A DNA stretch of 60,233 nucleotides from Sedimentisphaerales bacterium (GTDB lineage Bacteria; Planctomycetota; Phycisphaerae; Sedimentisphaerales; Anaerobacaceae). Position 1 is the first letter of the stretch. Each line of letters starts with the position of its first letter. This document shows positions 8,651 through 57,369 of the stretch, one piece after another. Below the pieces are notes generated by a model, which was not told the origin of the DNA, searched no databases, and saw only the letters and a program-made list of their open reading frames with translations. The position numbers were made by a program, and so were the translations under genes. The stretch covers positions 1 through 60,233 of the forward strand of contig JBELAA010000001.1 in assembly GCA_049509315.1 (NCBI GenBank), in the 5' to 3' direction.

Positions 8651-8654
8651 TTTA

Positions 8655-10388: not shown

Positions 10389-10476
10389 TATGCGGCCCCC
10401 TTGGTGTCGTCGGCTGCCCTGAATGGTACCACTATGCGGCCCCCTTGGTGTCGTCGGCTGCCCTGAATGGTACCAC
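10389..10476. repeat. Exact 44-bp tandem duplication (2 copies)
   Basis: tatgcggcccccttggtgtcgtcggctgccctgaatggtaccac occurs at 10389-10432 and again at 10433-10476. Confidence 0.95.
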
Positions 10477-10827: not shown

Positions 10828-10830
10828 TGG

Positions 10831-11055
10831 TTACTCCTTTTCGTCTTTTGAATAATCACCGTGTACCCATATATCCTGACAGTCGCGCCATGGGCGCTGT
10901 ATTGTTTCATGGTGACGGTTAACAAACGTATCGGGCGCCTTGGCAAGCGAACACCTGAAACATTCCGGGGTTATCTGGAATACCCTCATATTCTGGCTGC
11001 AATACTGTTTTCCGCTGCTTTCGTGCCTTTTTAACTTTATACGACGAAAGATCAT
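10831..11055 (-). CDS. Hypothetical protein
   Basis: 74-aa ORF directly downstream of the terminase gene. Confidence 0.4.
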   Translation of the reverse strand: MIFRRIKLKRHESSGKQYCSQNMRVFQITPECFRCSLAKAPDTFVNRHHETIQRPWRDCQDIWVHGDYSKDEKE

Positions 11056-11087
11056 CCATCAGGCGCGGTAAATTTTCAAATTTGACC

Positions 11088-19339: not shown

Positions 19340-22300
19340 CTATTCCTCGTCCGCAGGTGTTGGTGGTGGCGTTTCGACCGTCGGCGCCGCTCCTTCGGTG
19401 ACTTCTTCTCCGAACGATCCGTGGTATATTTTCAAGAAATTATTATAAACCTCTTTTCTCTCCTGGATGGCACGATTATAGGCGTCCTTGTCGACCGGGT
19501 CAAGCGATTTATAGAATTCATGTTCCCGGGCCTTGGATCCAGTAAAGGGGTGTTGCAGCCCTATTTTAAAGCCATGAGCCAGCTTTTTTATTATTGTTCC
19601 ACGTGTAACATCGGGCTCCTTTTTCTGTTCCACGGCGACCACGCGCTGCCATTCCTTCGATGCTTTCTGCAGGTTTTTATCCTGAAGGGCATTCCTCACA
19701 TCCCGGTATTTGCTGATTGGATAGGTGCCCTGGTCCGGCTGTACTTCGTGTTCTTTGCGCCACGCCTCGGCCTTAAGGTAGATTTCCGTCGATTTTGAAT
19801 ACCGTGCGACCTGAAGGCCCATGGAGGTAAGTAACGATTGCCACCAATCTATGTCTTTATTCCCCTGTTTTATCATGCGCGAGAGCCCTATTGGTATCCA
19901 AGTAAGCAATTCCTCTTCAAGAAATTGCCATGCGCTTTGCGGCTGACCTCGAAAGTCTCGGTGAGAGAGCATCCAATGGACCGTCTTCCCGAGAATGGGC
20001 GACATACGGCCGGATATAAACTGGCTGGTGTTTTTAAATAATTTCCACATATCTTCTGGTACAGAGCGCAGGCCGTATTTGCGGTTTTTATAAACAAAAC
20101 TGAATGGTTCTTCGAAATGATAATCGCCGTGTCCAAAGTCCTCGCCACCAAATAGCTTATTGAGCACTCTCGCGCCGACCCAAAAAAGCACAGCAAGGGT
20201 TGTAAGTGCCATCAGCTGCTCGCGGCCGTTCTGGTGGTCCTTGGGGGTTTTGCCGGTTATTTTCCTGTATACGTCTTCCGGCAAAGTCGCAATGGATTTT
20301 ACCGCCTGACCGGCAAAGCGGGCCCGGGCTTCAAGAAAATCCGGCGCAAGAAATACCGATTGCAGGAGGTGTTGGATCGTTTTACTGCGGCCCATGTCGA
20401 TGTAGTTCTGGTGTCCGAAGGCGGCGTTTGTCTGCCGGGCCGAAAGATACTCTATATCGTCGACCGATCGTTCTCCGGATTTTATCATCCGGTCGTATCG
20501 TTTTATGTTGCGGGCCAGCATATTATTATAAACCTTGTATTTCAGGCCCGGAATATACCAGGTAAAAAGAGGTTCGCTTATTGCTTCCAGCATGGGGCCG
20601 GCGACCGGTAATTTATAAAGAATCGGCCCGGAAGAAAGCCCCTCTCTAAAATTCTGCATACCATCGTAATCCGCAATCATCATAAGTCCATGTGCGGCCG
20701 CCCGATAGTGTAATGGATTATTAACAAGGTCTATTTTATCAATTCCGGCAAAGGGGTTAGTCCAGTGACCAACGGCGTGTGTTCCCTCTTGGACCCAGTG
20801 AAAACCAGACAAGCTGAACATTGATTGCTTTGTTCCGGATTGAATGAGGTCTGCTGTCTTTATGACATCACGCACAGTACCCATAATCGGCGGCAGCTCT
20901 TTCCGGTACCATTCGCGGATAGCGTCAGTGCCAAGCACATTTTGCAGGTGACCGGCAACGTCGGGGTGTACCGCAAGGTTGCCCTGATACATCACCTTTT
21001 CGCCGTTATCTGTTGTGGAAACATACTTCCAGTCCATCATGGCTGGATGTTTGACCGGTAGATAGTCCTCGTACTGCTTTGCAAGGCTACGGGAACGGAT
21101 GAGATAAAACGGTTTTTTCCCAGGTTCTTCCGGTATCACCTTATCGCCGGACCCCATCGGCATGGCAATATGGCGGCCGTCCGGCATGAGGGTGCTATTC
21201 AGATTTGCAATAAAATCGCGTGTTTCAATGGTTTTCCCGAGTTCATAAATGTAAATACCCAGCAATTCGCCTATCTTTTTTGTCTGCGGTTTATACCCGA
21301 GCTGCTCGGCTTCAAACAGGGTGGGGATAGTCCTCTCGCGCCCGAATTTGAAATTGAGCGCCAGCTTGCCGGAAAAGCCCGCGGGTTTATCGCCTTCCAT
21401 ATCAACAAGGTGGGTGACGTAGTTGTCCCTGATTTTGTCGACGAGGTCCCGCTCCTGTGCCTGCTTTCCCAATGCTGAGTATTTATCGGATACCCAACTG
21501 AGTATTTCCTTGTCTTTTTCGTTTAATTTTAAAGCAGCCTCATAACCCTCGACCACCTTGTGTTTTATCATCCATTTACGCTGGTCGTCGTTTTTGGTGT
21601 TTTTAATCAGGTCTTTGGTTTTCTGTAATTGATACCGAATCGTTTCCTCGTCCCCCTGCGCTTCAAGGTATATCGACAAAGCCTCTTCTTTCGTTGGGTC
21701 CTTTTCGAGCTCGTCCTTCACGTACTTTTCAGCCGCAGTCGCGTATTGCGACCATTTCTGGACGTTCGCCTGCCAGGTTAAAAGAGTCTTTTTATAGGGA
21801 GTGTATGCCGGCGTTTTTGCTATCTCATTGTAGAGGTCTTCAACCCGCCGGGCGATCTTCTGGCCAATCGTGCTCTGTGGTATCGGTACCGGGCCCAGCG
21901 GTGCGCCGCGCATGTCCTTCATCTCAATATTCGTTTCCCCGAATATCTGGTCCAGGTCCTCGCCCTCCCCACGGACTTCACCATACGGCGGGCGCCCCTC
22001 TTCAACAATAGCACCCCGTTTCCCTTCGGCTTCTTTTCTTAGCGCATTCATAAAATTATCGTTTGCGGAATCCATATCCCCGCGACCACCGAGCTCGAGG
22101 TCTTCCCCGACCTCTTTTATATACGTATCTATTGCCTCTGAAAATTCCGGGGATGGAAAACCGTCCTCTGCGATGCGTCGGGCTTCCTCAAAAACATCCT
22201 GTTCGGTCAGATAATTTCCGTTTTCGTCGCCATCGTCGTACTTTTTAAGCACATCATTTAACTCTGTCTTGTATTCGTTGTACCCGTACGGCGGCTGATT

Positions 22301-25300
22301 TTCTTCGACAAGCGCAAGATTTTTCTTGTAATTACCACCACCAAACCGTATATTTAAAGATGAAGGAGGTTCTATGTTTTCTTTTGACAGTGAAGAAGCC
22401 ATGGTTTCGCGTGAGTCCTCAACCTGCCGCGTTTGGGTCCGCCTGGGCGACTCTTCACTTATAAGGTCTGTTGACGGCTTCTGGACCGTGGATAGTCCCT
22501 CTGCCGGGGAAATATTCATTCCGGTCGTTTCCAAATCGGAAGTCTCGTCGCTACTGCGCGAAGCTCTTGCCGCCGCCGTTTCAATGCCGGTGCTTTGATC
22601 GTAAGGTGCCGGTTCATCCCAGACAAACCCGGATTTATATGCATCTGGGCCCCTGTAGGTCAACGAGGGCCCCATATTTTTCTCTGTTATATAATTATCG
22701 GGTTCCCTTCCTTCGTAAACAACATCTAATAAAACATCGTCTTTTTTAAATCCCTGGCTCCTGTAAATTTCTCTAACCTCATGAACAAATTTTTCTGCGT
22801 CGGGTTCCCCTCTTGTGTTGCTGGCGACAACAATAGAAACGGTACCCCCAGCGTTCTGCTGGTTCTGGTAAAGCGTTTGTTTGTGCAGTGTAACACCCAG
22901 TCTCAACGGATACCAAGCGGTGATTTTATTTCTATTATCAAGAACAACTTGGACCGCCTTAACGCCCCTCTTCATTACGCCCTTTACCGCGTCTACGACC
23001 TCGTTGTGGCCGTATATTTTTACCGTCGGTAAGTCGTATTGTTTAGCTGGGACGTATGTGTATTTGCCTTTAAAGTCTCCATTTTCATTTATGACCGCGT
23101 ATTCCGTACCATTGATTACAATGTGCGCAACAAAACCCTTACCGAGTGTGTCGCTGTATTTTCTTGTAAGAGCCAAGTCGGCGTAAGATGGTGTTGGATC
23201 CCCACCCGGGTGGTTGTGGACCATAAATATTTTATTTGCCCCAAGACGCTCCATTCTGTTTTTTACCCGATACATTGATCGGGCAAAATCGTCGGCATCT
23301 TCAACAGCCTTACTTTGATTGGCAAGGCCGGCCGACATGGTATTGTGGGCGACTATCTCGTTTTTATTATTTACATAAATAAGGTGAACGTGTTCTATGT
23401 TCGGATGACGGAAAATAGAAAATAGTTGGGCTATTTCCTGCGGCGACGTTACAACCTTGCCGGTAAAATCTATCCTGTGCAACTTGTTCCAGCTGGCTTC
23501 AATAATACTTTGTCCTGCCCGACCGACTCCCCGTACGGTGCCCTTGGTTCGACTATAAGGCCGCCCCGGAGTTCGCTCCCGTCCGGAAACTTCTGGCTCC
23601 GGTACGGCGGACGAAGTTCGTTTTCCTCGTCTAATCCCAGGTCGGTTTTCTTCTCTGATTCCTGCTTCCGGTACCTCCGCGGGCCGAATGTTCCGTAAGG
23701 TTTCCCTGACCTGTCGGTTGGTTTCATTGAGCGCCTCCATACTGCCGAATGTGGCATTAACGTCTTCCGCCGTGTAACCGAGATCTTCGGGCTTAAACAA
23801 ATCAACCTGCTCAGTCGCCCGGGCCTCCTGCTCGTTTTTATCAAATAGTGGCGTACCTTCGAGCGGGTTCTCACGCATAATTTCTTTTCTGGCTTCTGCC
23901 CGCCGTTGTTCCTCTTCTGCGATCTCCCGCTGACCCTTGGTCCGCGTGTCCTCGAATTCCGTACCCTTAAACAGGTCGGGGGTTTCGCCATAAGGCGCCT
24001 GCGACTCTTCAACACCTCCCGATCCTGCCTCGACCCTACCCTCCGCGTCTTCCTCGTTGACCGGTTCTATGGCCTCACCGGTAGGTATAAATGCCCGTTC
24101 CTTCTCCCACCTGACCGGTTCATCCTCCGGCTTTATTTCCTCTTCCTTGTGGTCTGCAAGCACCTTGTCGAGTTCGTTCATCCGGGCTTTCTTCTGCGCG
24201 AGCTCGTCGGCAAGGGTAAAGGTAACATTTTCCTTTGCTTTGTCGTCTTCAAGGTTTTTTTCCTGTTCGGCCACGGCCGCCTGCTCGTTCTTCAGGTTCT
24301 GGTCCATCCGCTTGTATACTGCGTCGTGCAGGCTGGCAACAAGCCCTATGGGCGAGCGGCTCGACGGGCTTAACTGCCCGACGTAGTTGTATTTTCCATT
24401 CACTACAATTTCGGATATCGGCCCTTGTACTCCGAACACCTCGCCGGACGTTGTTACGGCGCCGGCTTTCCGTTCCGGCATATACCAGCCAAGTTTTGTA
24501 CGGGCGGAAATATTAAAACCTGCAAAGCGGCCGATATTCTTCTGCTCTTCGCCGTTGGAATTTCTGTCCTTCATTTTCTTTTCAAGCGCGGTAATAACTT
24601 TAAGCAGCGCAGCCCCGGCTTCGGTCCGCTTATCGTACGTCTTCCCGTCGACGAATATCGAAAATTGTTTCTCTTCAGACGGCGCGGCGCCGGGTTTAAC
24701 CTCGACCGTTTTCTCAGGTTCGCGCTGTGTGACATCGGCCTTATACGCGGCGATATTTTTATTCAAGCGTGCAATGCGCTCCGGTATTGCGCGTATTTCC
24801 GCCTTGTGGTGCGAAATATCGTTTATGTGTACCCGTTCGAGATTTTCGAGCTCCTTTACCCGGTGTCGCAGCGTCATGGCCTCTTTCATTATCGGGTCTT
24901 CGATGGAAAGGTCTTTGACGCTCCCGAAATAATCTTCTTCGATCTCATCCTGCAGGTCTTCGGGCCTGGTGTCCATTATCGTGTTGATCGACTTTGATTT
25001 TACCTCGAGCATATTCCAGATACCGGTATCAAGGCTGCCCTTCGTAACGTAGTTATAGATTTCTACGGTACCGAGTTCACCCGCAGGTGTGGTCCTCTTT
25101 CCATTCTCATCAAAGTCCACCACCTTATTGCCCTGGCGGACAAACCTGCCATTTGACTGGTCATAATCCCGCGGGCGCCATCTGGCATCCAGCTGGTGTA
25201 CGGCCTTCCCATGGTCCTGAACATTCACGCCGACACCAAGTTTTTCTACACTGCCGAAAAGCACCCTTACCTTGCCGGATCGGACGGCATCGAAGAGCTG

Positions 25301-28300
25301 TTGTTTCGGGGCCTCTTTATCATACTTCGGGTTTGTTATATCGACGATTTCTTCCTGGGGGATCCCTCCGGCAACAAGTTTCTTTATCATATCGGCGGTA
25401 GCGTCGAACGTCATTACGTCTTCTCCGCCCGGGCCCTTACGATATGATCTCGGCCGATCGATAAAAACAAGCTGTGTGTACTTCTGGTTATTGTACTTTT
25501 TATATGTTTCGAGGATGTTGCGTACTCCCTGGTTCAGCTTGCTGTCTGGCAGGTCCGGAAGGTTCGGGCTGAACAATCTCAGGTCAAGCGCAGCCTTCTT
25601 GCCGTCGTCGATTATCACCAGTACATTGTCTGCGCCCTTTTCCGCTCGCTGGCCTTTAAGCCCCTTTTCCCTTCGAACAAGGTACCGCTTAAACGATTTC
25701 ATGAGGTCGGAGGCCGGCGCCGCTATGTTTATTACCTTCTCCAGCGGAAGATTTTTACCCGGTACCAGTATGCCCTTGTCCTTCAAATAGTTGTTTGTCT
25801 TTATGTCCCATACTTCCCGCAGCGCCTTCATGAATTCGGGTACGTTGGTAAGCCGTGAAAAGCGAGTGGTCGGCCGGTATGCGGACCCGCTGTTGTCGAG
25901 CTCCATCTCCGTGACCGTATCGGCAAACAATCTGCTCCAATCGTCAAAACTTTCTATATTGTTTTCATGCAGCCAGTCGCGCTGCAGATACTTCATCATG
26001 GAATATGCTTCAACGAGCGAGTTGGATATCGGGGTACCTGTGGAAAATATCAGGCGGGCGCCCTTGCGCGTCAAATACTTCGATTTATGGAACATATCAT
26101 AGGAGCGGCCGGACCCCATAGGACTACCCATGCCGCGGACGCCTTCGAGGGCGGTATAGTATTCGAGGTTTTTAAATTCGTCGGCCTCATCGATCGTAAG
26201 GAAGTCAATACCAAGGTCCTCAAAATAGAGCGTTCCCCGTTCTTTCCGCGCCTTATTGAGTAACCCCTGTCTTTTCTGTTTGTACGACTCCAGTTTCTTC
26301 TCGAGCTGCTTCACCGAGCGCGGTTTCTTTTTCTTACTGCCGAAGCTTTCGTTGGCGTGTTCCGTTTCGTATGCTTTGAGATAATTTTGGTATTGATTGA
26401 TTTCTTCCGATATCTGCTCCGCCTCTTCCCTGGGGGACAGTGGTATCTTTTTAAAGTCCTCGCGTTTTATCAATACGGCGTCCCAGTCGCCGGTGGCTAT
26501 TTTATTGATAAATAGCCTGCGTTTATCCGGCGACAAGTCGCCTTCATTTGCCACCAGTATATTGGCATGCGGATAGGCGGAATAAAAATCCGCCGTCCAC
26601 TGGCGTATTAACTTGTTCGGGAATACGTGCATTGGCTTCTTTGCAAGGCCAAGGCGCCGCGCTTCCTGACCGGCCCATATCATTTCAAGGGTTTTACCGG
26701 ACCCGACCCCATGGGCGAGCATGGTGTTTTTGTTCTGGATAATCCGCCATACTGCGTCCGCCTGGTGGATACGCGCCGGCCATGGGAATGAACTGCCGGT
26801 AAAGAACACCTGTGCGCTGGGGTCCTTTATTCTCTTCGGGTGGATGTATTCACGGTTCACGAACGCATTAAAGCGGTCGTTATAGTCGCGCACAATCCGC
26901 TCTTTCCGTTCGTTGTCCGACCATAGCCATTCGGTAAACTTCTTCTTTATCTCGTCCGCCCGGGCCTGCGCTGCCGCTGATTCCTGCTCGTTGAATACCT
27001 CTTTTGCGTGTCCTGGGTCGTCGGGTAATGGATCGGATACGGTATCATAAATCTTTGGCCGGCGACCGGCCATGAGTTCGCGCATGATCTCAATGCCGTT
27101 CATTCTCGGCGTACCGTATGTTTCTTCGACGAGCCGGGAATTATAATACCCACCTATTTTAATGTCCCACTGCCCGTTAAAGCTATTGTGGTTTGCGGAA
27201 ACATTGTTTGCGCCGAACGTGTCCTTCAAAAACTCTTCAATATCGGTGTGCTGCAGTAGTGGCGAATTCATCCGTACGGATATCCGCTCCGCAGGTTTAT
27301 CCGGCGGGATTATTGTTTCGAGTTCGCGCACGTTCAGGTCGAACATCCGGTATTTTTTTGCCGCTTCTTTTGCCTTTAACAGCTTCTGACGTACGTTTCC
27401 GGACAAATACTCGTCTCTTGACTGGTATAATTCGCGCTTGCCGTTCAAATAATCTTCCGGGCTGCGGAATACCAGCCTTTCCGCCAGAAGCTTGTCGACC
27501 GTTGCGGGGCCGTCCATGCCGAGCATGTCAGCTATACGGTGAATATTGACCGACCCGTATTGATTGAGTGAAACAATGAGCGCATCCTGCGCTGAGTCGG
27601 TTTTCTCGATCGCCTTATCGCGGGTGAAAGAATAACCCTTAAAAATAGCTGTCTTTTTTGCGGTGTCCGTCTGGTCGTCGTAGTTTTCAAGTGCTGCGAG
27701 TTGGTACCGGGCCGGGTCCTGTTTTATCAGGTTGAAAGTGCGCTTGTTATTTATCGGGCCGTGCTTTTTTACAAAAGAGTCGTATGCGGCGTTGAGTTTT
27801 GCAAGGTATTTCTTCGATTCGGCGCCCTCTTCGAGCCTTTCAGCATCAAACATTTTCTGCATGATGCTCTTAATCTCGGCCATCCGGTGTATTTTGTCGT
27901 GATTTTTACCCTCCGGCACCTTGTTGACGAAACCAGTTTCTGGATTTTTCTGGTAGAGCACATCCTTTTCAACAAAAAACGACCCGGGCGCCATGCGCTT
28001 AATATCTTCCGGCTGGTCGAATTCATCGAATGACACATGAAGGTTGTTTTCATCGACATACGGTGTAACAATGTCCTTTGGAAATTTATCTGCAGCGTTA
28101 AAAAGCATTTCCTCGAACTGTTCGTGAGTGACCGCCGGGTCAAGTTCGACGGTGTACTGGTCGCCGCCGTACCTGGTACCACCGAGCGTCGGTTTTCCCA
28201 GCACCATTTCTTCGTGGTTCTGAAAATATTTATTAACAAACATATCTTTCTTGCCGCCGGCCTTCGGTGCGTCCATGGATACGGCGCCGGACTCTACAAA

Positions 28301-29944
28301 CAACTTACTCATCTCAGAGGGCGGCTGGTTCGGGGCCCGCTTCTGCAGGAAAATTATATCGGTGACCACCTCGGTGCCGGCGTTCTCCTTGAATGCGGTA
28401 TCAGGCAGCCGGACCGCCCCAATAAAATCTGCCTGTTTTATTATCGCCTGACGTACGGATGGGTTTTTCTTGTCCATCGTGTAGTGCGACGTTACAAAAC
28501 CGAGAAGTCCTCCGGGACGCAGGCCGTATAATGATTTCATGAAGTAAAAATCATGGAGCGCCATACCCTTGGGTAGATCCGGCGTTGCGGCGTCCGACGG
28601 TTCAACCGGCGATATTTCGCTGAAGGGAACATTTGATAAAATAAGCTGGTAATAGTCTTTCGGCATCTTCAGGGTTTCGTAACCCTGTATCTGAATTATG
28701 GCGTTCTGGTAGAGCTGTTGGGCGATACGTCCGGATATCGGGTCGAGCTCGATACCTTCCATGGACATATTAAGGGATGTCGGACGCAGGCCGAAAAAGT
28801 GTCCTATGCCGGTCGCCGGTTCGAGTGTCGGGCCGCCGTTAAAACCCATGCGCGTAATGGCGTTCCATATCGATTGAATGACCGCCGGGGAAGTGTAGTG
28901 CGCGTTTGTGGTAGATGCCCGGGCCGCAGCGTATTCTTCTTTAGTGAGTAATCCCTTCAATTCATCGTGGGCGATGTTGGATTCTTTAAAGGTCGCGGAA
29001 AGCCCGCCCCATCCGACGTAACGGACAAGCGCCTGCTGCTCTTCCGGCGTGGCGTGACGGTTTTCGCTTTCGATCTGTTTGAGGATTTTTATTGCATTAA
29101 GATTATCTTTCAGTTTTGCGGCCGGTCCACCGTGCCCGATGTTGTCGGCTTCCTGAATAAGATAATCTATAAGGCGCTGTTTCTTCCGGCCCTCTGGGGT
29201 ATGGTCTATTAATCTGGGTTCATCTCCGCGGCTTCCCCTTGCCCCTCCGTCGCTTCCGGCAGCCAGAGATCCCGTTCCGCCACCTCCTCCGCCTCGTTCG
29301 GATACATCCCGTACTTTACCAGCTGGTGTTCCTGTTCGATCTCCCGGTCGCACGCCTTCTGTACCGCCTGGTGTAACTCCCCCTTCTTCCGCAGGTTGAG
29401 CACGTACTGGGGCTGCGCCTTCGCCCACTGCTGCAGCACCTCGATCTCCCAGCTGGTCAGCTCCTTCCGGTCTTCCGGCAATATTGGTGCCGGTTCCTGC
29501 GGCGGCTGGCTTTGCGGCTTCGGTCGGGGCGGCGGCGCCGGCCTTGGGTTCGGCGGGTCGTGCGGGAATCTTTGTAGGGGCGGCATGTTCGCTTGGGCCT
29601 GCAGGTTTTCCTGCTGCTGGCTCTGCTCCGGTAGCTGGCTTTGCGGGGAGTTGTTCGGGTTCGGTTCCACGTTTACCTTCTTCCGGTGGTTTAGTGGTGG
29701 TAATTACCTCTTGTCCCTTCCCTTTAATTATACCTGTTTCCGCAGGAGATATCAAGGGTTTTATTGTTTTTATTTTGTTCTTCGCGGCTGCCGGGGTCAG
29801 GAGTGTACGGGCCTGTTCTATGGTCGGAAGGCCCGCGCCCTCATGTCTTACAAACGCGACAAAGGCCCGTTCCGGTCCGAATGTCTTTTCGAGTTCTTTG
29901 TATTCAGGCGCGTTTTTATTCGGGCAATGGATTTTTACAGGCAT
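19340..29944 (-). CDS. Giant polyvalent protein (3534 aa): N6-adenine MTase + SF2/SNF2-like helicase + RadC/JAB + C-terminal membrane module
   Basis: Uninterrupted 10.6-kb ORF. MTase motif I LEPATGIGHFFG and motif IV SNVPFS (about 28330-29190). Helicase motifs AHGVGSGKTLEM, IDEADEFKN, STGTPISNS, NGRFVRQGN (about 25000-26790). RadC/JAB motif HNHPGGDPTPSYADL (about 23080-23420). TM helix LMALTTLAVLFWVGARVL near 20170-20215. Confidence 0.9.
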   Translation of the reverse strand: MPVKIHCPNKNAPEYKELEKTFGPERAFVAFVRHEGAGLPTIEQARTLLTPAAAKNKIKTIKPLISPAETGIIKGKGQEVITTTKPPEEGKRGTEPEQLPAKPATGAEPAAGKPAGPSEHAAPTKIPARPAEPKAGAAAPTEAAKPAAAGTGTNIAGRPEGADQLGDRGAAAVGEGAAPVRAQPAEEGGVTPGGTEGVRPGDRTGTPAGKVRDVSERGGGGGGTGSLAAGSDGGARGSRGDEPRLIDHTPEGRKKQRLIDYLIQEADNIGHGGPAAKLKDNLNAIKILKQIESENRHATPEEQQALVRYVGWGGLSATFKESNIAHDELKGLLTKEEYAAARASTTNAHYTSPAVIQSIWNAITRMGFNGGPTLEPATGIGHFFGLRPTSLNMSMEGIELDPISGRIAQQLYQNAIIQIQGYETLKMPKDYYQLILSNVPFSEISPVEPSDAATPDLPKGMALHDFYFMKSLYGLRPGGLLGFVTSHYTMDKKNPSVRQAIIKQADFIGAVRLPDTAFKENAGTEVVTDIIFLQKRAPNQPPSEMSKLFVESGAVSMDAPKAGGKKDMFVNKYFQNHEEMVLGKPTLGGTRYGGDQYTVELDPAVTHEQFEEMLFNAADKFPKDIVTPYVDENNLHVSFDEFDQPEDIKRMAPGSFFVEKDVLYQKNPETGFVNKVPEGKNHDKIHRMAEIKSIMQKMFDAERLEEGAESKKYLAKLNAAYDSFVKKHGPINNKRTFNLIKQDPARYQLAALENYDDQTDTAKKTAIFKGYSFTRDKAIEKTDSAQDALIVSLNQYGSVNIHRIADMLGMDGPATVDKLLAERLVFRSPEDYLNGKRELYQSRDEYLSGNVRQKLLKAKEAAKKYRMFDLNVRELETIIPPDKPAERISVRMNSPLLQHTDIEEFLKDTFGANNVSANHNSFNGQWDIKIGGYYNSRLVEETYGTPRMNGIEIMRELMAGRRPKIYDTVSDPLPDDPGHAKEVFNEQESAAAQARADEIKKKFTEWLWSDNERKERIVRDYNDRFNAFVNREYIHPKRIKDPSAQVFFTGSSFPWPARIHQADAVWRIIQNKNTMLAHGVGSGKTLEMIWAGQEARRLGLAKKPMHVFPNKLIRQWTADFYSAYPHANILVANEGDLSPDKRRLFINKIATGDWDAVLIKREDFKKIPLSPREEAEQISEEINQYQNYLKAYETEHANESFGSKKKKPRSVKQLEKKLESYKQKRQGLLNKARKERGTLYFEDLGIDFLTIDEADEFKNLEYYTALEGVRGMGSPMGSGRSYDMFHKSKYLTRKGARLIFSTGTPISNSLVEAYSMMKYLQRDWLHENNIESFDDWSRLFADTVTEMELDNSGSAYRPTTRFSRLTNVPEFMKALREVWDIKTNNYLKDKGILVPGKNLPLEKVINIAAPASDLMKSFKRYLVRREKGLKGQRAEKGADNVLVIIDDGKKAALDLRLFSPNLPDLPDSKLNQGVRNILETYKKYNNQKYTQLVFIDRPRSYRKGPGGEDVMTFDATADMIKKLVAGGIPQEEIVDITNPKYDKEAPKQQLFDAVRSGKVRVLFGSVEKLGVGVNVQDHGKAVHQLDARWRPRDYDQSNGRFVRQGNKVVDFDENGKRTTPAGELGTVEIYNYVTKGSLDTGIWNMLEVKSKSINTIMDTRPEDLQDEIEEDYFGSVKDLSIEDPIMKEAMTLRHRVKELENLERVHINDISHHKAEIRAIPERIARLNKNIAAYKADVTQREPEKTVEVKPGAAPSEEKQFSIFVDGKTYDKRTEAGAALLKVITALEKKMKDRNSNGEEQKNIGRFAGFNISARTKLGWYMPERKAGAVTTSGEVFGVQGPISEIVVNGKYNYVGQLSPSSRSPIGLVASLHDAVYKRMDQNLKNEQAAVAEQEKNLEDDKAKENVTFTLADELAQKKARMNELDKVLADHKEEEIKPEDEPVRWEKERAFIPTGEAIEPVNEEDAEGRVEAGSGGVEESQAPYGETPDLFKGTEFEDTRTKGQREIAEEEQRRAEARKEIMRENPLEGTPLFDKNEQEARATEQVDLFKPEDLGYTAEDVNATFGSMEALNETNRQVRETLRNIRPAEVPEAGIREENRPGIRRGKRTSSAVPEPEVSGRERTPGRPYSRTKGTVRGVGRAGQSIIEASWNKLHRIDFTGKVVTSPQEIAQLFSIFRHPNIEHVHLIYVNNKNEIVAHNTMSAGLANQSKAVEDADDFARSMYRVKNRMERLGANKIFMVHNHPGGDPTPSYADLALTRKYSDTLGKGFVAHIVINGTEYAVINENGDFKGKYTYVPAKQYDLPTVKIYGHNEVVDAVKGVMKRGVKAVQVVLDNRNKITAWYPLRLGVTLHKQTLYQNQQNAGGTVSIVVASNTRGEPDAEKFVHEVREIYRSQGFKKDDVLLDVVYEGREPDNYITEKNMGPSLTYRGPDAYKSGFVWDEPAPYDQSTGIETAAARASRSSDETSDLETTGMNISPAEGLSTVQKPSTDLISEESPRRTQTRQVEDSRETMASSLSKENIEPPSSLNIRFGGGNYKKNLALVEENQPPYGYNEYKTELNDVLKKYDDGDENGNYLTEQDVFEEARRIAEDGFPSPEFSEAIDTYIKEVGEDLELGGRGDMDSANDNFMNALRKEAEGKRGAIVEEGRPPYGEVRGEGEDLDQIFGETNIEMKDMRGAPLGPVPIPQSTIGQKIARRVEDLYNEIAKTPAYTPYKKTLLTWQANVQKWSQYATAAEKYVKDELEKDPTKEEALSIYLEAQGDEETIRYQLQKTKDLIKNTKNDDQRKWMIKHKVVEGYEAALKLNEKDKEILSWVSDKYSALGKQAQERDLVDKIRDNYVTHLVDMEGDKPAGFSGKLALNFKFGRERTIPTLFEAEQLGYKPQTKKIGELLGIYIYELGKTIETRDFIANLNSTLMPDGRHIAMPMGSGDKVIPEEPGKKPFYLIRSRSLAKQYEDYLPVKHPAMMDWKYVSTTDNGEKVMYQGNLAVHPDVAGHLQNVLGTDAIREWYRKELPPIMGTVRDVIKTADLIQSGTKQSMFSLSGFHWVQEGTHAVGHWTNPFAGIDKIDLVNNPLHYRAAAHGLMMIADYDGMQNFREGLSSGPILYKLPVAGPMLEAISEPLFTWYIPGLKYKVYNNMLARNIKRYDRMIKSGERSVDDIEYLSARQTNAAFGHQNYIDMGRSKTIQHLLQSVFLAPDFLEARARFAGQAVKSIATLPEDVYRKITGKTPKDHQNGREQLMALTTLAVLFWVGARVLNKLFGGEDFGHGDYHFEEPFSFVYKNRKYGLRSVPEDMWKLFKNTSQFISGRMSPILGKTVHWMLSHRDFRGQPQSAWQFLEEELLTWIPIGLSRMIKQGNKDIDWWQSLLTSMGLQVARYSKSTEIYLKAEAWRKEHEVQPDQGTYPISKYRDVRNALQDKNLQKASKEWQRVVAVEQKKEPDVTRGTIIKKLAHGFKIGLQHPFTGSKAREHEFYKSLDPVDKDAYNRAIQERKEVYNNFLKIYHGSFGEEVTEGAAPTVETPPPTPADEE

Positions 29945-29946
29945 GG

Positions 29947-30312
29947 TTAAACGCTCTTGTATGTTAAGGTTTTCGCTTTGAAAAAATACTTCGTAAAACC
30001 GACCGCTTTTTTCGCGTCAAACCTCTTGCATGAATATATGTCTACCGTGAAAAAGTTACAACTCTCCCAGGTATATACCGATGTGCCGCTCTCCACCCAT
30101 ACCATGAGGCCCTCGTATCCCTCCTGCTGGCCGTGCGGCCGGTACTTCTCGCCGTTTCTCATGACGCGGGGCCCGAAGATGATGGTCATTCGAAGAAGGT
30201 ATGATAAATCACGCAGATATTTTCTTATTCTGGGTGCGGAAAGGGCCGCCTCGTAATGCCCTTCAATTACAAGACGCTGACGGTAAATGTCCCTCGCTAT
30301 CTTTTTCATCAT
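29947..30312 (-). CDS. S-adenosylmethionine decarboxylase-like (pyruvoyl-type fold) protein
   Basis: GYEGLMVWVESGTSVYTWESCNFFTVDIYSCKRFD aligns by eye to the SpeH-type core [35 protein letters not shown]. The Glu-Ser processing dipeptide and the Cys are kept. The His of the IH motif is replaced by Tyr. Confidence 0.6.
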   Translation of the reverse strand: MMKKIARDIYRQRLVIEGHYEAALSAPRIRKYLRDLSYLLRMTIIFGPRVMRNGEKYRPHGQQEGYEGLMVWVESGTSVYTWESCNFFTVDIYSCKRFDAKKAVGFTKYFFKAKTLTYKSV

Positions 30313-30722: not shown

Positions 30723-31980
30723 AGTAATTAATCCCGAATTTTGCCGATTTTGCTATCTCGTCTTCCGCTTCATCCAAAGAGTCGGGGAATATATCTATAA
30801 AGTATCCCGTAACGCTCTTCGCTACCTTCTTTACCATATCGATCGCCGCCTGCAGTGTGTCGCCGTAACCGACCGCGGCGCCTATCTCCGGCAGGCCAAG
30901 CGCCTGCGGTATAACGTAGTACCGGTCGTCGACCATGGCGGCGTTTCGCAGTTTGATAAACTGGCGGTTTTCCGGGGGAAAGTCGACCGGCTGCCAGTTC
31001 TTATCGGCCCAGCTCGAGTGTATCAGCATCTCCGCGCCGAATTTAGCGACCGGTACCGGGTCGACAAGGATGCCGTTACCGCCCGCCCATATAATTTCCG
31101 CAAGGTTCTTATAGTTTTCCTGGTAAAGCTCGCTCGGTGGGGATCCGGCCCGGGCGCACATATCGATCATAACCGGCTTTTTGTCACCGCCGACGCGCAG
31201 CTCAGTTGAATAAAAACCTCGATATCCGTATTGTTTGAGTGTCGGCGCCAGCGCTTTATCAAAATCGGTAATAACGGCCGGCAGGTCCTTATACTGTTTG
31301 AATATTCCGATGTATCCCTTATCTTTAACCTCTATTCCGGACATCATCTGGGAAGGGAATTTTCCATCAATTGAATAAGCGTCGAGGCCAACTTCAACGA
31401 GATCCGGCAGGTCGTCTTCAACGATAAATTCCATGATATTTTTAAAGGCGCCGAGCTGGTACGCGAGTTCGTCCAGCTTTGGTTCAACCTCCTTAAAATC
31501 CTTCGAGAAGAAGGTTTCCATCATGCCGCGCCATTTATTGATTTTCACCCATTTATTGTTGTTGGATTTAAGATATTCCCGCAGGGCATTAATCCCCTTT
31601 ATCTTTATCCACGGTTGGACCGGCAAGCCAAGGCTCTTCATGAGATTCTTCATTGAGTCGCGGTAAAGCTCCATCTCCTCGCCCATCCTTGCGCCCCACA
31701 CGGCCTTCCCCTGGCTTTCGAGCCATACCTGCATCTCGCCGTAATAAACGTCAGGAAATACCCAGAGGTCGACCTGGTTGAAATAAGGCCATGGGGATTC
31801 AACAACCTCGATATTTTCCAGTCCTCTGCCTATCCAGGCTTCGTGCATCCGCGGGAAGGAGTTCGGCCAGCCAAGGACGCAGTAATAAACCTTCTTGTAT
31901 TCCCGGGCCAGGCGGACCGCTATCTCGACGAAGATCCCGTTATCAATCACCATGGCCACTACGTCTTTCACCTGCTTCAT
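30664..31980 (-). CDS. ATP-grasp-like (PurD-like) ligase
   Basis: Start set at MKQVKDVV (ATG 31980, ATGA overlap with the upstream stop). The overall layout (VIDNG...; WVKINKWRGMMETF; STELRVGGDKKPVMIDMCARAGSPP) recalls ATP-grasp carboxylate-amine ligases. Not motif-proven. Confidence 0.5.
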   Translation of the reverse strand: MKQVKDVVAMVIDNGIFVEIAVRLAREYKKVYYCVLGWPNSFPRMHEAWIGRGLENIEVVESPWPYFNQVDLWVFPDVYYGEMQVWLESQGKAVWGARMGEEMELYRDSMKNLMKSLGLPVQPWIKIKGINALREYLKSNNNKWVKINKWRGMMETFFSKDFKEVEPKLDELAYQLGAFKNIMEFIVEDDLPDLVEVGLDAYSIDGKFPSQMMSGIEVKDKGYIGIFKQYKDLPAVITDFDKALAPTLKQYGYRGFYSTELRVGGDKKPVMIDMCARAGSPPSELYQENYKNLAEIIWAGGNGILVDPVPVAKFGAEMLIHSSWADKNWQPVDFPPENRQFIKLRNAAMVDDRYYVIPQALGLPEIGAAVGYGDTLQAAIDMVKKVAKSVTGYFIDIFPDSLDEAEDEIAKSAKFGINYFETNAQPENKPEDVTAQAA

Positions 31981-34900
31981 GCCGCTTCCTTTATCGAAAA
32001 GGTGTTCTGCCCGCCCATGAGTTCTTTGCAATACACGCGCTGGAGATACTCGTCTTTCGTTTCCCCGACATCCTTAAGAGCGTTTTTATCGTAAGATTCG
32101 TTAAAATCTTTTTCAGTCGTGAAACCCGCCTGCTTCCAGCCGAATTCTTCTTCCTTTTCCATTTCGGCGGGTGCGGCCGCAGGCGCAGAAACGGCCGTCG
32201 TTTCTTCTTCCGGCATCTCTTCCGGCGTCCGGCGACCCTTTTTAAACTGCTCCACCGCCTTATCGTACAATTTCATGCGCGGATCGTCGAGCTTGAAATA
32301 TCTGACGTTACCGTCTTTATTTGTCAATTTCCATACAACCTGCTTGACCCCGTTTACATCTTTCGTTATCTGCTTTTTATAGAAAAATCCCCTGTCGAAA
32401 ACGAGGGATTCCATCTGGTTTTTAATTACATTTTCTTTACCGGCCTCTCCAAGCCTCCTCCCGGGCGACTGGGATTCTTCTGGCGTAATAAGGCCGAGTT
32501 CTTTTTTTCGCGATTCAACCTCTTTCGCTATGGGGTGGTCTTTTGGAATTACAACTTCGTTGCCGACGCCGTCGTCGAGGCGGATGTATTTTTTCCCGCC
32601 CTGTATGACCGTTGGAGTATAGATAGCTTTACCTTTATCTAACACCTGTTCATCGACGTATTTTTTTACACGTGCCCTATCGGTTACTTCCGGCAATCCA
32701 GCGGCTGGTGGTATTGGTGTTTCGGGCGGTTTTATTTCGCTTCCGCGCACGACCGGAGGAAGTCCCCTTTTTTTTGCGAGTTCTGCGTAATGTGCTTCCT
32801 CTTCGCCTTGCTGAAACGGAAACGCCTCAGATTTATCTGGTTTTACAACTTCGAATGGGTGGGGCGCTTCCTGCAATTGGCGGGCAACATCTTCAAAATC
32901 AGTAAAGAGGTCTTTGGGTATGCCGGTTTTATTCCGCAGTTCTTCCGCTTCGGTTGATTCGTTCCAGTAGTCGTATATGTCTTTAACGAGGGCGTTTGAT
33001 TTATTGGTAAGGACGATTGTCCTGCCCTTATTGTCCTTTGTCTTTTTGCCCATCAGGAAGTCCCATTGTTCCTGACCCTTCGGCTGGTCCAGCACTTCTT
33101 TTCTCAAACCGGATTTTGTTGCGCGGAGCCATAAAGCGGTATTGACCTTCGGGTCGTCCCCGAAAGTCTGCGGTTCGCGGCCTTTACTTGTGGGTTTTAG
33201 TTCGCCTGGTGGGGTCGGAGCGACGGCGCGAGAGACTTCAGTACGTCCGGGTGAAACTGCTCTTCCGGATCCGGCGACGGGCTTTCCTGTCGCGGTCGCA
33301 GGTTCGGCGTTCTCCGGTAAATTTCCTCCTGCTCCGGGCTTCCTTCCTCGAGGTTGTAGTTCCTCCGTCCGGAGGCCAGTAATCGGTCGATTTCCTGTAT
33401 ATTCATAATACCTTCCATCTACCGATACGCCACTTTTCCCGGCTTCCTTCGATTTGTAAACTTGTGCGTCGGCGGCATCGTACCCTGCGCCATGGCCCGA
33501 AGAAAATGTGACGCCGCGGAGGGGGCCCTTGTCGGTGTCGAATGTTGTATTTGCGAGTTCCTCATTTGCCCTTCTCTCTATATTAATTATACTCTGTGCG
33601 TCAAGAGATTTCAAGGGAAATGTTGCAATTTCTTCGCCTCCGATACGCACGACTTTTGCCTTATCGCCATACGCTTTTTGAAGGACATCCGCAAATTTTT
33701 TTAATACCTTGTCACCGACCGGATGGCCGTAGGTGTCGTTTATAGACTTGAAATTATCAAGATCGTGTATTGTCTGGTCAGCGGTCCTTATGTCGATATT
33801 GTCCTTAACGAGCGTGTTGCGGTTTCCAAGGCCGGTCAGCTGGTCGGTGTATGCCAGCTTTTCGAGGTTTTCATAGTGTTTTTGTTTTTGATCGGGAGAT
33901 AAGGCATTGAATTGACCGGATGGTATGGGTGTTTCCCCTTCGGGTACTACCGGCATCTGCTGGGTTTCTCGCATTGCCTGGTCGACCGGGGCCTCTTTAG
34001 GCGCCTTCCTTATCTCGTTTATCCTTCCCTGCTCATACGTGTTGAGCTTCGGGTAGATCTCCTGCTGGCGGGCTTCCGGCAGCGCCACAAAGCCTTCCGG
34101 ACCTTCAACCCCAAGTGATTGTAGGGTATTCATGCCCTGCGGCATTTCCGGGGGTGTTGGCCTTGTCGTTCCGGTTTTAGGTGTTTCTGTTCCAGAAACA
34201 GGTCTTTTCGTTTCAGGAATAGGGGTAATCGTTTCAGAAACGGGTGGTTTTGGTACTGGTGGTTGTTCTGGTACCGGTGTGGGTTTTGGTACCGGGGCAG
34301 GAGGCGGGGTGGCTGGCCCCGCTTCCGGCTGTGGTTCCGGTGCTGCACCTGCCTTTGTCTTGCCTGCGGCTACCGACTGATCAAGCGTTGCCTTCGTCCT
34401 GTTGTAATAATCGATGTACCGCTCGCCCTGGACCGGTGCCAGCGCATCGATCACATCGTTGGGGATTGCTCCTTTAAATGCTTCCTTCAGGCCCTTATAG
34501 AGAACGTCATTTCCAAATCTGTTGCCGAATTGTTCGTAGTTCTCGTTGGGTTTCGGTTTGTTTGAATTCCAGTCAAAGTCGCGGTATTCCTTAAAACCAC
34601 CGTATTTTTGGATTGTTTCATCGTAAAGTTTTGCGGCCGCGCCGTAGGTTTTACCCGTCAATCCGTACCCAAAGCCCTGCGCAAAGTTACTTATTATGTC
34701 CGATGGGCTTGCTCCCTGGGCCGCGGCCATGCCGCCGAAAACGCTACCCTGTGCTATACTCTGGGCCACCCGCTGCGGTATCGCGCTCATCTTACCGGTG
34801 ACCATCTCGGCGCCCTTACCTGCCGCAGAAAAAGCCGCCATCTGAGCGCCGGTCACCGCTCCCTGTTTTACCCTTTCCTTCAATCCCCCATCACTGGTTA

Positions 34901-35846
34901 CAAACCCTTGCTCAAAACCAGAAACAGTATTTGCGATTGTTTTTTCAACATCGTCGGCGGTTATAAGTTTCCCACTTTTCTTTGCAGCTTCCGATACCGC
35001 CTTCTGTATTATCGGCTTCATTTCAACCAGAGCGGTGGGCCCATATTTCTTTGCGAAGGCCCCCATTATCGCTCGTGCCTGCTCGCCGCCTCCGGTCGCA
35101 ATCATGGTGGGAAGGAATTCGCCCAGCATATCAATACCACCAACAAACGCCGCGCCGGCGGGTCCGCTGCGCTGGTATGTCTCTTGTTCTGCTGGATTCG
35201 GCTGGTAAAAATCAGTGAGTGTCTTCCCGGCTTTCGTCAAGGTGTTGTGGTAATCGGCAGCTGCCTTACTCACCTTGTCCCATACCGGCTTATTGGTCTT
35301 TTCCCCGAGCATGTCGGCAACATAGCCGAAGTTTTCAGCCGCATCGGCTGATACGCCGGTAACAAGTTTTCCTATATTCGCGTATCCCTTCGCCACCTGT
35401 TTGATTGCATAGGTACCGAGGCGGTCCTCGTCTTTTTTCGTCCATTCTTTCGCAACGGCTTTAGGCGGCGGGGTGACGGGCAAAGTCTCTTCCGGCACGG
35501 GCATTTTCTTTGTCATTCCCAATACCCGCGCAGGAGCGTTTGCTGCGAGTGGTACGGGTTTAGGCACTTCTGGAAGTGGGGCTGGCTGTATGTCGGTGCG
35601 CGTCGATACTGCCGGCACGGCAGTCATGACCGGCATTGATACTGGCGGAATCTGAACATTCAGCGGCGGCTGGGGTGTGGTTGTTTTGGGAGGTTTTGAA
35701 TTGAGATGATCTGTAATATCCGATACGCCATAACCCTCCGCCATGGCGCCCGAGTAGTCAAAATCAGGGCGTGTCTTTTTAAGATGGTCGAGAATATCGA
35801 CATCACTATAACCCTCTTGTTTTGCTCCGTTATAATCAAACGCCAT
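31977..35846 (-). CDS. Large internal-virion/ejection-like protein (1289 aa) with embedded GGDEF domain
   Basis: Duplicated N-terminal motif (DYNGAKQEGYSDVDILDHL / DYSGAMAEGYGVSDITDHL). A Gly/Ala-rich hydrophobic region and Pro-rich linkers. GGDEF domain at about 33440-33860: DQLTGLGNRN...DLDNFKSINDTYGHPVGDKVL...VRIGGEEIA...ADAQVYKSKEAGKSG. Confidence 0.85.
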   Translation of the reverse strand: MAFDYNGAKQEGYSDVDILDHLKKTRPDFDYSGAMAEGYGVSDITDHLNSKPPKTTTPQPPLNVQIPPVSMPVMTAVPAVSTRTDIQPAPLPEVPKPVPLAANAPARVLGMTKKMPVPEETLPVTPPPKAVAKEWTKKDEDRLGTYAIKQVAKGYANIGKLVTGVSADAAENFGYVADMLGEKTNKPVWDKVSKAAADYHNTLTKAGKTLTDFYQPNPAEQETYQRSGPAGAAFVGGIDMLGEFLPTMIATGGGEQARAIMGAFAKKYGPTALVEMKPIIQKAVSEAAKKSGKLITADDVEKTIANTVSGFEQGFVTSDGGLKERVKQGAVTGAQMAAFSAAGKGAEMVTGKMSAIPQRVAQSIAQGSVFGGMAAAQGASPSDIISNFAQGFGYGLTGKTYGAAAKLYDETIQKYGGFKEYRDFDWNSNKPKPNENYEQFGNRFGNDVLYKGLKEAFKGAIPNDVIDALAPVQGERYIDYYNRTKATLDQSVAAGKTKAGAAPEPQPEAGPATPPPAPVPKPTPVPEQPPVPKPPVSETITPIPETKRPVSGTETPKTGTTRPTPPEMPQGMNTLQSLGVEGPEGFVALPEARQQEIYPKLNTYEQGRINEIRKAPKEAPVDQAMRETQQMPVVPEGETPIPSGQFNALSPDQKQKHYENLEKLAYTDQLTGLGNRNTLVKDNIDIRTADQTIHDLDNFKSINDTYGHPVGDKVLKKFADVLQKAYGDKAKVVRIGGEEIATFPLKSLDAQSIINIERRANEELANTTFDTDKGPLRGVTFSSGHGAGYDAADAQVYKSKEAGKSGVSVDGRYYEYTGNRPITGLRTEELQPRGRKPGAGGNLPENAEPATATGKPVAGSGRAVSPGRTEVSRAVAPTPPGELKPTSKGREPQTFGDDPKVNTALWLRATKSGLRKEVLDQPKGQEQWDFLMGKKTKDNKGRTIVLTNKSNALVKDIYDYWNESTEAEELRNKTGIPKDLFTDFEDVARQLQEAPHPFEVVKPDKSEAFPFQQGEEEAHYAELAKKRGLPPVVRGSEIKPPETPIPPAAGLPEVTDRARVKKYVDEQVLDKGKAIYTPTVIQGGKKYIRLDDGVGNEVVIPKDHPIAKEVESRKKELGLITPEESQSPGRRLGEAGKENVIKNQMESLVFDRGFFYKKQITKDVNGVKQVVWKLTNKDGNVRYFKLDDPRMKLYDKAVEQFKKGRRTPEEMPEEETTAVSAPAAAPAEMEKEEEFGWKQAGFTTEKDFNESYDKNALKDVGETKDEYLQRVYCKELMGGQNTFSIKEAA

Positions 35847-57368: not shown

Positions 57369-57369
57369 T

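Follow-up and report, generated by a model that had tools for sequence, protein, structure and literature searches.

The 60,233-nucleotide stretch of DNA analyzed here (the window; Sedimentisphaerales bacterium, GenBank assembly GCA_049509315.1, contig JBELAA010000001.1, positions 1 to 60,233) is a phage genome in which a single open reading frame (ORF) encodes a protein of 3534 amino acids (aa). The protein joins a DarB-like effector block, containing an adenine-N6 DNA methyltransferase (MTase), an SF2 helicase and a RadC domain, to a C-terminal module that constitutes a distinct, large and recurrent family found behind variable polyvalent-protein cargo. In the closest relative, the locus L002, the module is a separate gene downstream of the DarB-like one. 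We propose that the window protein is a late polyvalent protein, probably carried in the virion and ejected, with the DarB-like block as its effector part and the module serving for incorporation or ejection.

Giant DarB-like virion proteins (PHROG 10089) and polyvalent proteins (Iyer 2017) are already known. New are the module family, which differs from the C-termini found in cultured phages, is very widespread and has neither annotation nor a structural match, the natural pair of fused (window) and unfused (L002) forms, and an MTase motif IV that reads NVPF. In some podoviruses, a fifth or more of the genome is devoted to a giant DarB-like protein. The locus splits the question of how such proteins get into the particle and the host into two parts, a swappable effector block and a conserved C-terminal module with thousands of relatives.

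The C-terminal module is a large family that ends proteins with variable cargo

The protein is organized as follows, from the N-terminus to the C-terminus.

19340..29944, minus strand: whole ORF, 3534 aa, ATG start (ORF list, translation, codon usage, independent assembly)
29777..29944, minus strand: N-terminal segment, aa 1-56, assigned to no family and unaligned with the L002 protein (translation, L002 alignment)
29195..29776, minus strand: Pro/Ala/Gly-rich low-complexity linker, aa ~57-250, probably disordered (disorder-type residues)
28025..29194, minus strand: LPD36-like helical lead-in (IGHGG) and gamma-class adenine-N6 DNA MTase-type domain, aa ~251-640 (relatives' alignment, profile matches, P1 darB)
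26795..28024, minus strand: helical region between MTase and helicase, aa ~641-1050 (within the matches to PHROG 10089, 11801 and 1685; 62% identity to L002)
25025..26794, minus strand: SWI2/SNF2-type SF2 helicase/translocase, aa ~1051-1640 (Pfam, PHROGs, motifs, tblastn)
23891..25024, minus strand: last part of the DarB-like core, helical and charged, aa ~1641-2018 (the PHROG 10089 match ends at aa 2018)
23075..23536, minus strand: RadC-type JAB domain, aa ~2137-2290, with HNHPGGDPTPSYAD as its HxHx7Sx2D motif (Pfam, NCBIfam, PDB, motif)
22598..23074, minus strand: post-RadC domain, aa 2291-2449, the last part common to the L002 polyvalent protein (47% identity over aa 2303-2449)
22595..22600, minus strand: fusion junction, aa 2449/2450 (...FVWDEPAPYD / QSTGIETAA...) (L002 alignments)
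21845..22597, minus strand: N-terminal stretch of the module protein, specific to the lineage, aa 2450-2700, common only to P0001, the module protein of L002 (relatives' alignment)
19409..21844, minus strand: conserved core of the C-terminal module, aa ~2701-3512, mostly helical, with beta structure in two small regions and numerous invariant polar residues (alignments, model)

The region from aa ~2669 to 3534 had no match in Pfam, PHROGs or NCBIfam (the LPD models of the Pfam copy searched included), and the module of its relatives had no precomputed Pfam match. A first-pass annotation, made from the sequence alone, had called this C-terminal third uncharacterized, which holds for these databases; the module is, however, a separate gene in L002 and a large recurrent family rather than a one-off. 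A tblastn search of the module against 50,697 phage records found none, so that at the sensitivity of BLAST cultured phages lack the family. The word-indexed protein search returned 11 module relatives of 881-1514 aa, located on ~50-kb contigs and similar at their C-termini, and even with a diverse alignment it gave 11-16 only. The true breadth was revealed by an exhaustive hidden Markov model search of 1.84 billion representatives, in which 3570 relatives (counted as clusters at 50% identity) were found at E<=1e-3, 1123 of them at E<=1e-30.

The module match extended to the C-terminus in nearly all of 150 listed representatives, proteins of 724-3534 aa of which the window protein is the longest. 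Similarly, the module ended the ORF in 39/39 IMG/VR loci, with ORFs of up to 3680 aa (L032) and N-terminal extensions of ~130-2900 aa before the module in the complete ORFs. The cargo of the long family members included LPD1, ART-PolyVal, PBECR5, LPD5, MutS_I, Strawberry-notch (Sno)-type SNF2 and RadC (the last in L012), and the module stood nearly alone in P0002 (881 aa) and P0139 (724 aa). The loci examined carried one module copy per ORF. When the window was compared with two distant relatives (L001 and L004), the module was the only protein with detectable similarity across the 20-kb loci, and in two related loci examined the module gene lay inside or ended a co-oriented late-gene block. 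Among 185,579 GTDB species genomes the module was present on only two contigs of metagenome-assembled genomes, in Bifidobacteriaceae and Spartobacteria bins. These contigs are probably binned phage DNA, and since no more than two carry it, the module is apparently not prophage-borne.

The module gene of one relative, L007 (IMGVR_UViG_3300016722_000150; ORF ~9213-12029), contained two in-frame TGA codons, at columns that in the relatives are W and an aromatic residue. The longest ORF of the locus increased from 670 to 3302 codons when TGA was read as sense, which suggests a related phage with a TGA-recoded genetic code.

The window ORF is an in-frame fusion of two genes that are separate in L002

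The first of the two L002 genes encodes a DarB-like polyvalent protein that is at least 3465 aa long and has GGDEF, InPase, WH, helicase and RadC domains. After its stop come 17 nucleotides (nt) containing a ribosome-binding site and then P0001, a 1122-aa module protein. The DarB-like protein was 62% identical to the window protein over aa 57-1987 and 50% over aa 2040-2449, and P0001 was 57% identical over aa 2434-3512. Since the module is a separate downstream gene in L002, the window ORF is an in-frame fusion of aa 1-2449 with aa 2450-3534. The L002 sequence absent from the join comprises the last 153 aa of the first gene, the stop, the 17 nt and ~80 aa of the N-terminus of the second gene; the frame is kept across the junction and the coding signal is continuous. 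The simplest origin would be an in-frame deletion of ~0.7 kb between adjacent genes, and fission in L002 is a possible alternative history. Within the module family, only the window and L002 bring the module together with a DarB-like block, in L002 as separate genes.

The continuity of the ORF was examined further. Its translation contained no stop codon except the terminal one, and the codon usage of the ORF in frame 1 correlated with that of the other long genes in every full 500-codon block (0.71-0.84; 0.35 in the last 34 codons), with the off-frames uncorrelated. The uninterrupted 10.6-kb ORF described in the first-pass annotation is therefore real as read, and its estimated share of about 18% of the genome agrees with the 17.6% calculated for ~60.1 kb. 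The Pro/Ala/Gly-rich disordered N-terminus also described there was likewise recovered, with disorder-type residues at 0.76-0.91 over aa ~60-250, and each motif it had quoted was found in place when the translation was checked. The ORF starts 2 nt past the stop of the upstream gene, with AAGAG ~10 nt upstream, and its downstream neighbor begins after 14 nt.

We give very little credence to the idea that the single ORF is an artefact of assembly or sequencing that joins two real genes. Although the nearest relative does have two genes, and the circular assembly of the window is of short-read style, with its ends overlapping by 119 bp, the junction is no mere lost stop, because ~153 aa, the stop, 17 nt and ~80 aa are gone with the frame kept. 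A contig from another sample and a separate assembly (ENA ERZ27250059, 62,388 bp) encodes a protein of the same 3534-aa length, identical at 3533/3534 positions, in a locus 99.997% identical to the window across 29.5 kb. Two assemblies with the fused ORF make a one-off assembly artefact very unlikely and weigh against the possibility, raised in the first-pass annotation, that several genes had been fused by assembly. Equally long single-ORF extensions also exist elsewhere in the family, in L032 and, if TGA is sense, in L007.

Effector blocks appear to have moved between ORFs in this lineage. A 1289-aa protein encoded at 31977-35846 (minus strand) of the window contains a GGDEF domain (Pfam, 3.5e-20), and a 190-aa domain of it (aa 1015-1204) was 38% identical to part of the L002 giant, whose DarB-like block has GGDEF and InPase fused to it. 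Because GGDEF is separate in the window and fused in L002, effector blocks have evidently been shuffled between ORFs in the window/L002 lineage, and the 1289-aa protein is probably a second polyvalent, injected effector protein. The 153-aa tail of the L002 giant that is absent in the window (L002 9525-9983) ends in ...PWYDIEHVRDAFRFKTVVNNFDDMRKH, which by eye resembles a RelA/SpoT-type nucleotidyltransferase motif.

The window protein has three copies of a short linker motif, EE-x-x-[AP]PYG, each located at a domain boundary.

23984..24013, minus strand: copy 1, GVEESQAPYG, aa 1978-1987 (L002 equivalent, EETSAPYG)
22280..22309, minus strand: copy 2, LVEENQPPYG, aa 2546-2555 (aligned site in P0001, AEEAPAYG)
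21977..22006, minus strand: copy 3, IVEEGRPPYG, aa 2647-2656, just ahead of the conserved core (motif scan)

The equivalent sites of L002 and P0001 are conserved, and the related PAPYD (22598-22612) lies exactly at the junction. The copies may be protease-processing or docking sites. EE-x-x-PPYG was rejected as a family-wide feature; it is confined to the window/L002 lineage and P0009, the NAAYGH motif of the core apart.

The effector block contains a DarB-like MTase-helicase core

PHROG 10089 ('DarB-like antirestriction') matched aa 98-2018 (E=0, 1309.7 bits). In tblastn, the MTase-helicase span (aa 251-1640) was covered to 99% at 30-37% identity by giant DarB-like proteins of Bcep22, BcepIL02, DC1, Ralstonia phages, SopranoGao, Atu_ph08, PBC5 and VvAW1, with 30% identity, 99% coverage and E~1e-171 for Bcep22, BcepIL02 and DC1. 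Unannotated gut-virome contigs formed a second group aligning to this span within the same identity range. The MTase part matched darB of P1/P7 (24% identity, E 2e-11).

A profile built from five sequences over aa 241-660 matched BsaXI (5e-6), M.TaqI (1.2e-5) and BseCI (1.7e-5) in PDB, and CamA and type I M subunits were matched as well (range E 5e-6 to 1e-2). The profile was required, as a single-sequence PDB search of the MTase region gave no meaningful match and a PDB sequence search with the whole protein returned RadC only. The window carries LEPATGIGHFFG at aa 374 (nt 28790-28825) and SNVPFS at aa 437, and the alignment of relatives contains motif I, LEPATGIGHF, and an invariant AHYTS(P) element (AHYTSP in the window). 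Both the window and L002 have NVPF as motif IV, in contrast to NPPF in more distant relatives. The IGHGG element (aa ~268-272) aligned with IGKGG/IGEGG of the relatives, before an invariant YVGWGG, and the LPD36 match is one of motif and alignment alone.

The helicase contains motifs I (GSGKT, aa 1081), II (DEADEF, aa 1252), III (STGTP, aa 1301) and VI ((G)RFVRQG, aa 1600), and matched Pfam SNF2-rel_dom at 26.6 bits against a gathering threshold of 24.9, with weak matches to ResIII, Helicase_C and DEAD. Together with the RadC results given below, these searches recovered all three folds named in the first-pass annotation, the N6-adenine MTase, the SF2 helicase and the JAB domain. Its remark that no polymerase motifs are visible was also supported: no polymerase family was detected in the giant protein by Pfam, PHROGs or NCBIfam, and no RNA polymerase (RNAP) or MPTase by the PDB sequence search. 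An N4-like virion RNAP was rejected as an identity for the protein on these grounds. A lytic transglycosylase and an HExxH (zincin) peptidase were not found in the giant protein by Pfam, PHROGs, NCBIfam or motif scan.

The 121-aa gene at 29947-30312 (minus strand), nearly abutting the giant ORF upstream, is S-adenosylmethionine (SAM) decarboxylase-like (PHROG 3125, 4.8e-7), and an identical gene in L055 matched Pfam AdoMet_dc. A SAM-consuming enzyme beside a SAM-dependent MTase could reflect anti-restriction SAM depletion or synthesis of a modified cofactor. At 5808-8713 (minus strand), a radical-SAM protein (335 aa; PHROG 27238, 2.4e-17) is adjacent to a 633-aa protein with methyltransferase-like regions, and the pair may form a DNA or nucleotide modification module distinct from the DarB-like MTase.

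A RadC domain with an intact metal-binding motif follows the core

RadC has been proposed to play a nucleic-acid-processing role in conjugative elements. The domain in the window protein matched Pfam RadC (PF04002) at 1.5e-13 over profile positions 2-119/121, PDB 2qlc at 4e-6 and NCBIfam RadC at 1.2e-14, the last falling short of the equivalog cut-offs, which is no surprise for a domain that stands by itself. HNHPGGDP is located at aa 2243 (nt 23195-23218), and the RadC metal-binding motif HxHx7Sx2D is intact. In the survey of Iyer et al. 2017, RadC was recorded only among conjugative elements' polyvalent proteins (PMC5512222); its presence in polyvalent proteins of the phage type, those of the window, L002 and L012, is new relative to that survey.

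The module is a confidently modeled, mostly helical fold with dense invariant polar residues

The AlphaFold2 (AF2) model built with 12 sequences had a predicted local distance difference test (pLDDT) score of 65, and that built with 49 sequences reached pLDDT 82.9 and a predicted template modeling (pTM) score of 0.85, being mostly helical with two small beta regions. Foldseek searches against PDB with both models gave no match at E<=0.001 (TM-score ~0.1). Two helices of the module stand out.

20765..20800, minus strand: near-invariant His/Glu helix FHWVQEGTHAVGH with H3049, E3053, H3056 and H3060 (invariant columns of alignments A2, A4 and A6; model helix 379-391)
20159..20218, minus strand: one hydrophobic helix, aa 3243-3262, with the C-terminus ~290 aa away (Kyte-Doolittle 1.63; similar helices in PTXU04 gp25 and VvAW1 gp01)

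The spacing of the His/Glu residues is i, i+4, i+7, i+11, and the helix is a candidate metal or ligand site. The motifs NAAxGH, APDFLEAR and RSVPxD are conserved down to ~23% identity, and further invariant residues are H3085, N3173, H3178, D3202, E3205, R3207, R3293 and D3298. The aligned hydrophobic helix of 49 relatives had a 19-residue Kyte-Doolittle mean of 1.41 (0.99-1.88), often with Q, S, N or R within it. Of the membrane module proposed in the first-pass annotation, the one hydrophobic helix was thus located; its hydrophobicity is moderate and borderline across the family, and the membrane label is unproven.

These features bear on an alternative role, in which the module is itself an enzyme or effector, such as a metal-dependent hydrolase or a nucleic-acid- or envelope-modifying enzyme, rather than a packaging or ejection device, and virion entry, if any, is specified elsewhere. 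The giant protein would in that case be just an extended chain of effectors. The dense invariant polar residues, the His/Glu stripe and the three motifs conserved at such low identity fit this role, as does a confident model with no structural analogue among solved ejection proteins, and several uncharacterized LPD domains look enzymatic according to Iyer et al. (PMC5512222). We nevertheless consider it unlikely, as effector domains of polyvalent proteins shuffle, whereas the module is C-terminal in nearly all 150 listed representatives and all 39 IMG/VR loci. It also occurs once per ORF in the loci examined and almost alone in P0002 and P0139, the pattern of a core virion gene, and its putative structural relative PTXU04 gp25 (see below) matters for plating on a laboratory host.

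The module is likely a distant relative of the C-terminal domain of PTXU04 gp25 and VvAW1 gp01

When the pLDDT-65 model was searched with Foldseek against BFVD, later fragments of long phage proteins annotated as 'large polyvalent protein-associated domain' were matched at E 4e-11 to 1e-4, including S0A015 of Cellulophaga phage phi19:3. The match to A0A482MT02_2 of PTXU04 had E 2.9e-7, probability 1.00 and TM-score 0.31, and A0A482MT02 agrees with PTXU04_00025 in length (2 x 1099 = 2198 codons). Annotated structural proteins of flavobacterial phages and an internal virion protein D of the T7 type were matched more weakly. PTXU04 gp25 is the product of the last gene of the structural block of this E. 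coli phage; its knockdown strongly lowers plating efficiency, and it is a validated fitness gene (PMC11879866). The PTXU04 C-terminal domain family comprised 276 cultured-phage records and ended the giant protein in each locus fetched, including the DarB-like giants of VvAW1 (28% identity, E 5e-62) and Ralstonia phage Gamede (E 3e-11). VvAW1 gp01 (Vibrio phage; L046, 3451-14373) is a DarB-like protein of 3640 aa, takes up 28% of its 38.7-kb genome and lies directly after a 'DNA ejection' gene; among cultured phages it represents an extreme form of this architecture.

One hydrophobic helix lies 290-330 residues from the C-terminus in each of the window protein, PTXU04 gp25 and VvAW1 gp01. The weak hhalign alignment of the two families was collinear over LAPDFLEAR/VPFLNAR, the hydrophobic helices, PF..PE and then P..G..(Y/F)xG motifs. 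A distant relationship of the module to the PTXU04/VvAW1-type domain is likely, though unproven.

A relationship to the PLxRFG domain (NF032893, 'tail-700'), which ends Lastavirus and F116-type giants, was rejected. The window protein gave no match at E<=1 where SopranoGao gave 4e-202, hhalign returned a probability of 0.8%, and hmmsearch with the module profile found nothing. A literature search for 'PLxRFG' returned nothing functional.

A virion-carried, ejected polyvalent protein is the probable role

The analogy with P1 DarB and Bcep22 leads to the following predicted sequence of events. The giant protein would be made late, be incorporated into the particle through its C-terminal module and be ejected ahead of or with the phage DNA. 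The MTase-translocase would then load on the entering DNA and, acting in cis, guard it from type I-like restriction by methylation or shielding, and the RadC domain may process nucleic acid. The module would direct particle incorporation and/or help ejection across the envelope, with its hydrophobic helix possibly inserting in the membrane, and cargo fused to its N-terminus would be delivered together with the DNA.

By mass spectrometry, the DarB-like protein JC1 gp69, which is of the Bcep22 type, is associated with the virion (51 peptides; PMC9144972). P1 DarB belongs to the head and protects incoming DNA in cis (PMC5512222), and Gill et al. 2011 is cited for giant DarB-like virion proteins already on record. 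In the phages examined, the DarB-like giant comes where the structural block closes, behind genes for virion or ejection proteins. In the window, all long genes are on the minus strand, and the giant ORF has the structural genes on one side and the terminase gene on the other, sharing its strand with the portal (55248-57464), tailspike-like and large terminase (TerL; 11088-13286) genes.

The same gene order would also suit a protein that is not packaged and acts late in the cell, for example by methylating progeny DNA ahead of its packaging, with the module tethering it to the membrane or to a replication or packaging site. The single hydrophobic helix could provide a membrane anchor, and no homologues of DarA, Hdf or Ddr, needed by P1 for DarB packaging (PMC9144972), were seen in the window. 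DarB-like giants without DarA are still found in virions, however, as is the case for JC1 gp69, P1 DarB acts from the head, and the giants of the phages examined sit behind virion and ejection genes; we therefore regard the unpackaged role as distinctly improbable.

Several observations weigh against a virion-carried, ejected protein with the module as its delivery part. The module is rich in invariant residues (His, Asp, Glu, Asn and Arg), which look more like those of an enzyme or metal site than of a passive anchor, and its hydrophobic helix is borderline as a transmembrane segment. The structural link to PTXU04 comes from the lower-confidence pLDDT-65 model, the profile-profile comparison with the PTXU04/VvAW1-type domain is weak (hhalign E 0.004, probability 8%), and a single-sequence search of the module against the PTXU04-type domain gave no match. 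By model, hhalign and hmmsearch the module has no homology to PLxRFG of the Lastavirus/F116-type giants. The giant protein lacks a zincin (HExxH) processing peptidase, and motif IV of the MTase is NVPF, not NPP(Y/F), so that catalysis by the MTase is not assured.

The preferred reading, a virion-carried and ejected polyvalent protein, can be extended. Because the module is strictly C-terminal with interchangeable cargo, and because PTXU04 gp25 is needed for fitness on a laboratory host, the module would itself do something essential and not simply add another effector. We tentatively suggest that the module, of ~850 residues, is an undescribed, possibly metal-binding fold that many uncultured phages (probably podoviruses) use as a universal chassis for delivery. 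It would be an essential protein, internal or for ejection, to which arbitrary anti-defence cargo is fused N-terminally, with L002 and the window representing one cargo-loading event before and after, against genetic backgrounds that are nearly identical. If so, cargo attachment would resemble that of polymorphic toxins, in which varied domains are placed on a fixed secretion part. The fused and unfused forms are natural constructs bearing on whether fusion to the module suffices for cargo delivery. If it does, the module could be used for loading chosen proteins into phage particles, and how phages build multi-effector anti-defence proteins would be explained.

Comparison with known giant and polyvalent phage proteins

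The podovirus giants used for comparison were Bcep22 gp75, JC1 gp69 (4515 aa), Atu_ph08 gp21 (4877 aa), SopranoGao gp06 (4369 aa) and VvAW1 gp01. The Bcep22-, PBC5-, Lastavirus- and VvAW1-type giants share the MTase-SNF2 core of PHROG 10089 with the window protein, at 30-35% identity over 99% of aa 251-1640. Like the window protein, these giants occupy 18-28% of genomes of 38-62 kb, lie among late/virion genes and carry a large conserved C-terminal module behind effector domains. The window protein differs from the podovirus giants in having no N-terminal lytic transglycosylase/peptidase and no HExxH, in the added RadC, in motif IV (NVPF instead of NPPF) and in the fusion with a gene that is separate in L002. 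Its C-terminal module is another sequence family, and kinship with PTXU04, VvAW1 and Gamede is at the level of fold, if at all.

P1 DarB, a 2255-aa head protein that defends against type I restriction, has a homologous adenine-MTase region followed by an SF2 helicase, and is the archetype of the MTase-helicase dyad (PMC5512222). Only its MTase part aligned at E<=1e-10, and it has neither RadC nor a counterpart of the window C-terminal module. P1 is also a myovirus that needs DarA, Hdf and Ddr to pack DarB, none of which was seen in the window. As the first-pass annotation had proposed, the window protein belongs with the polyvalent proteins of Iyer, Burroughs, Anand, de Souza and Aravind (2017), which combine several conflict-related domains in one polypeptide beside virion genes; MTase, SNF2 and RadC in one ORF near virion genes fit this class, and the features of the LPD36-MTase-SNF2 'DNA methylase-helicase dyad' are matched (PMC5512222).

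PTXU04 gp25, a 2197-aa putative polyvalent protein, resembles the pLDDT-65 module model in its C-terminal half, and its family likewise has variable N-terminal cargo, which is DarB-like in VvAW1 and Gamede. That family is common in cultured phages, in contrast to the window family, for which tblastn found no match in the phage records. The N4 gp50 virion RNAP (3500 aa) is similar in size to the window protein and is tripartite, with terminal regions for injection/encapsidation and an enzymatic middle (PMC5512222). No RNAP module or MPTase was detected in the window protein, whose cargo is instead the MTase, helicase and RadC.

Other features of the window genome

Bases 1-119 of the window recur exactly at 60114-60232 as a direct repeat (assembly overlap), and therefore the window is a circular assembly, or a terminally redundant genome, of ~60,114 bp. 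No near-identical DNA was found among the 50,697 phage records, and no tRNAs were found in the window. Between ~40000 and 50000 the AT skew jumps from about -0.25 to about 0 with gene strand unchanged. This block holds a 978-aa tailspike-like gene (K1-lyase_C / polysaccharide-deacetylase C-terminus) and a gene for a 1303-aa DUF3383 protein, and it may have been acquired horizontally as a unit for the tail or for receptor binding.

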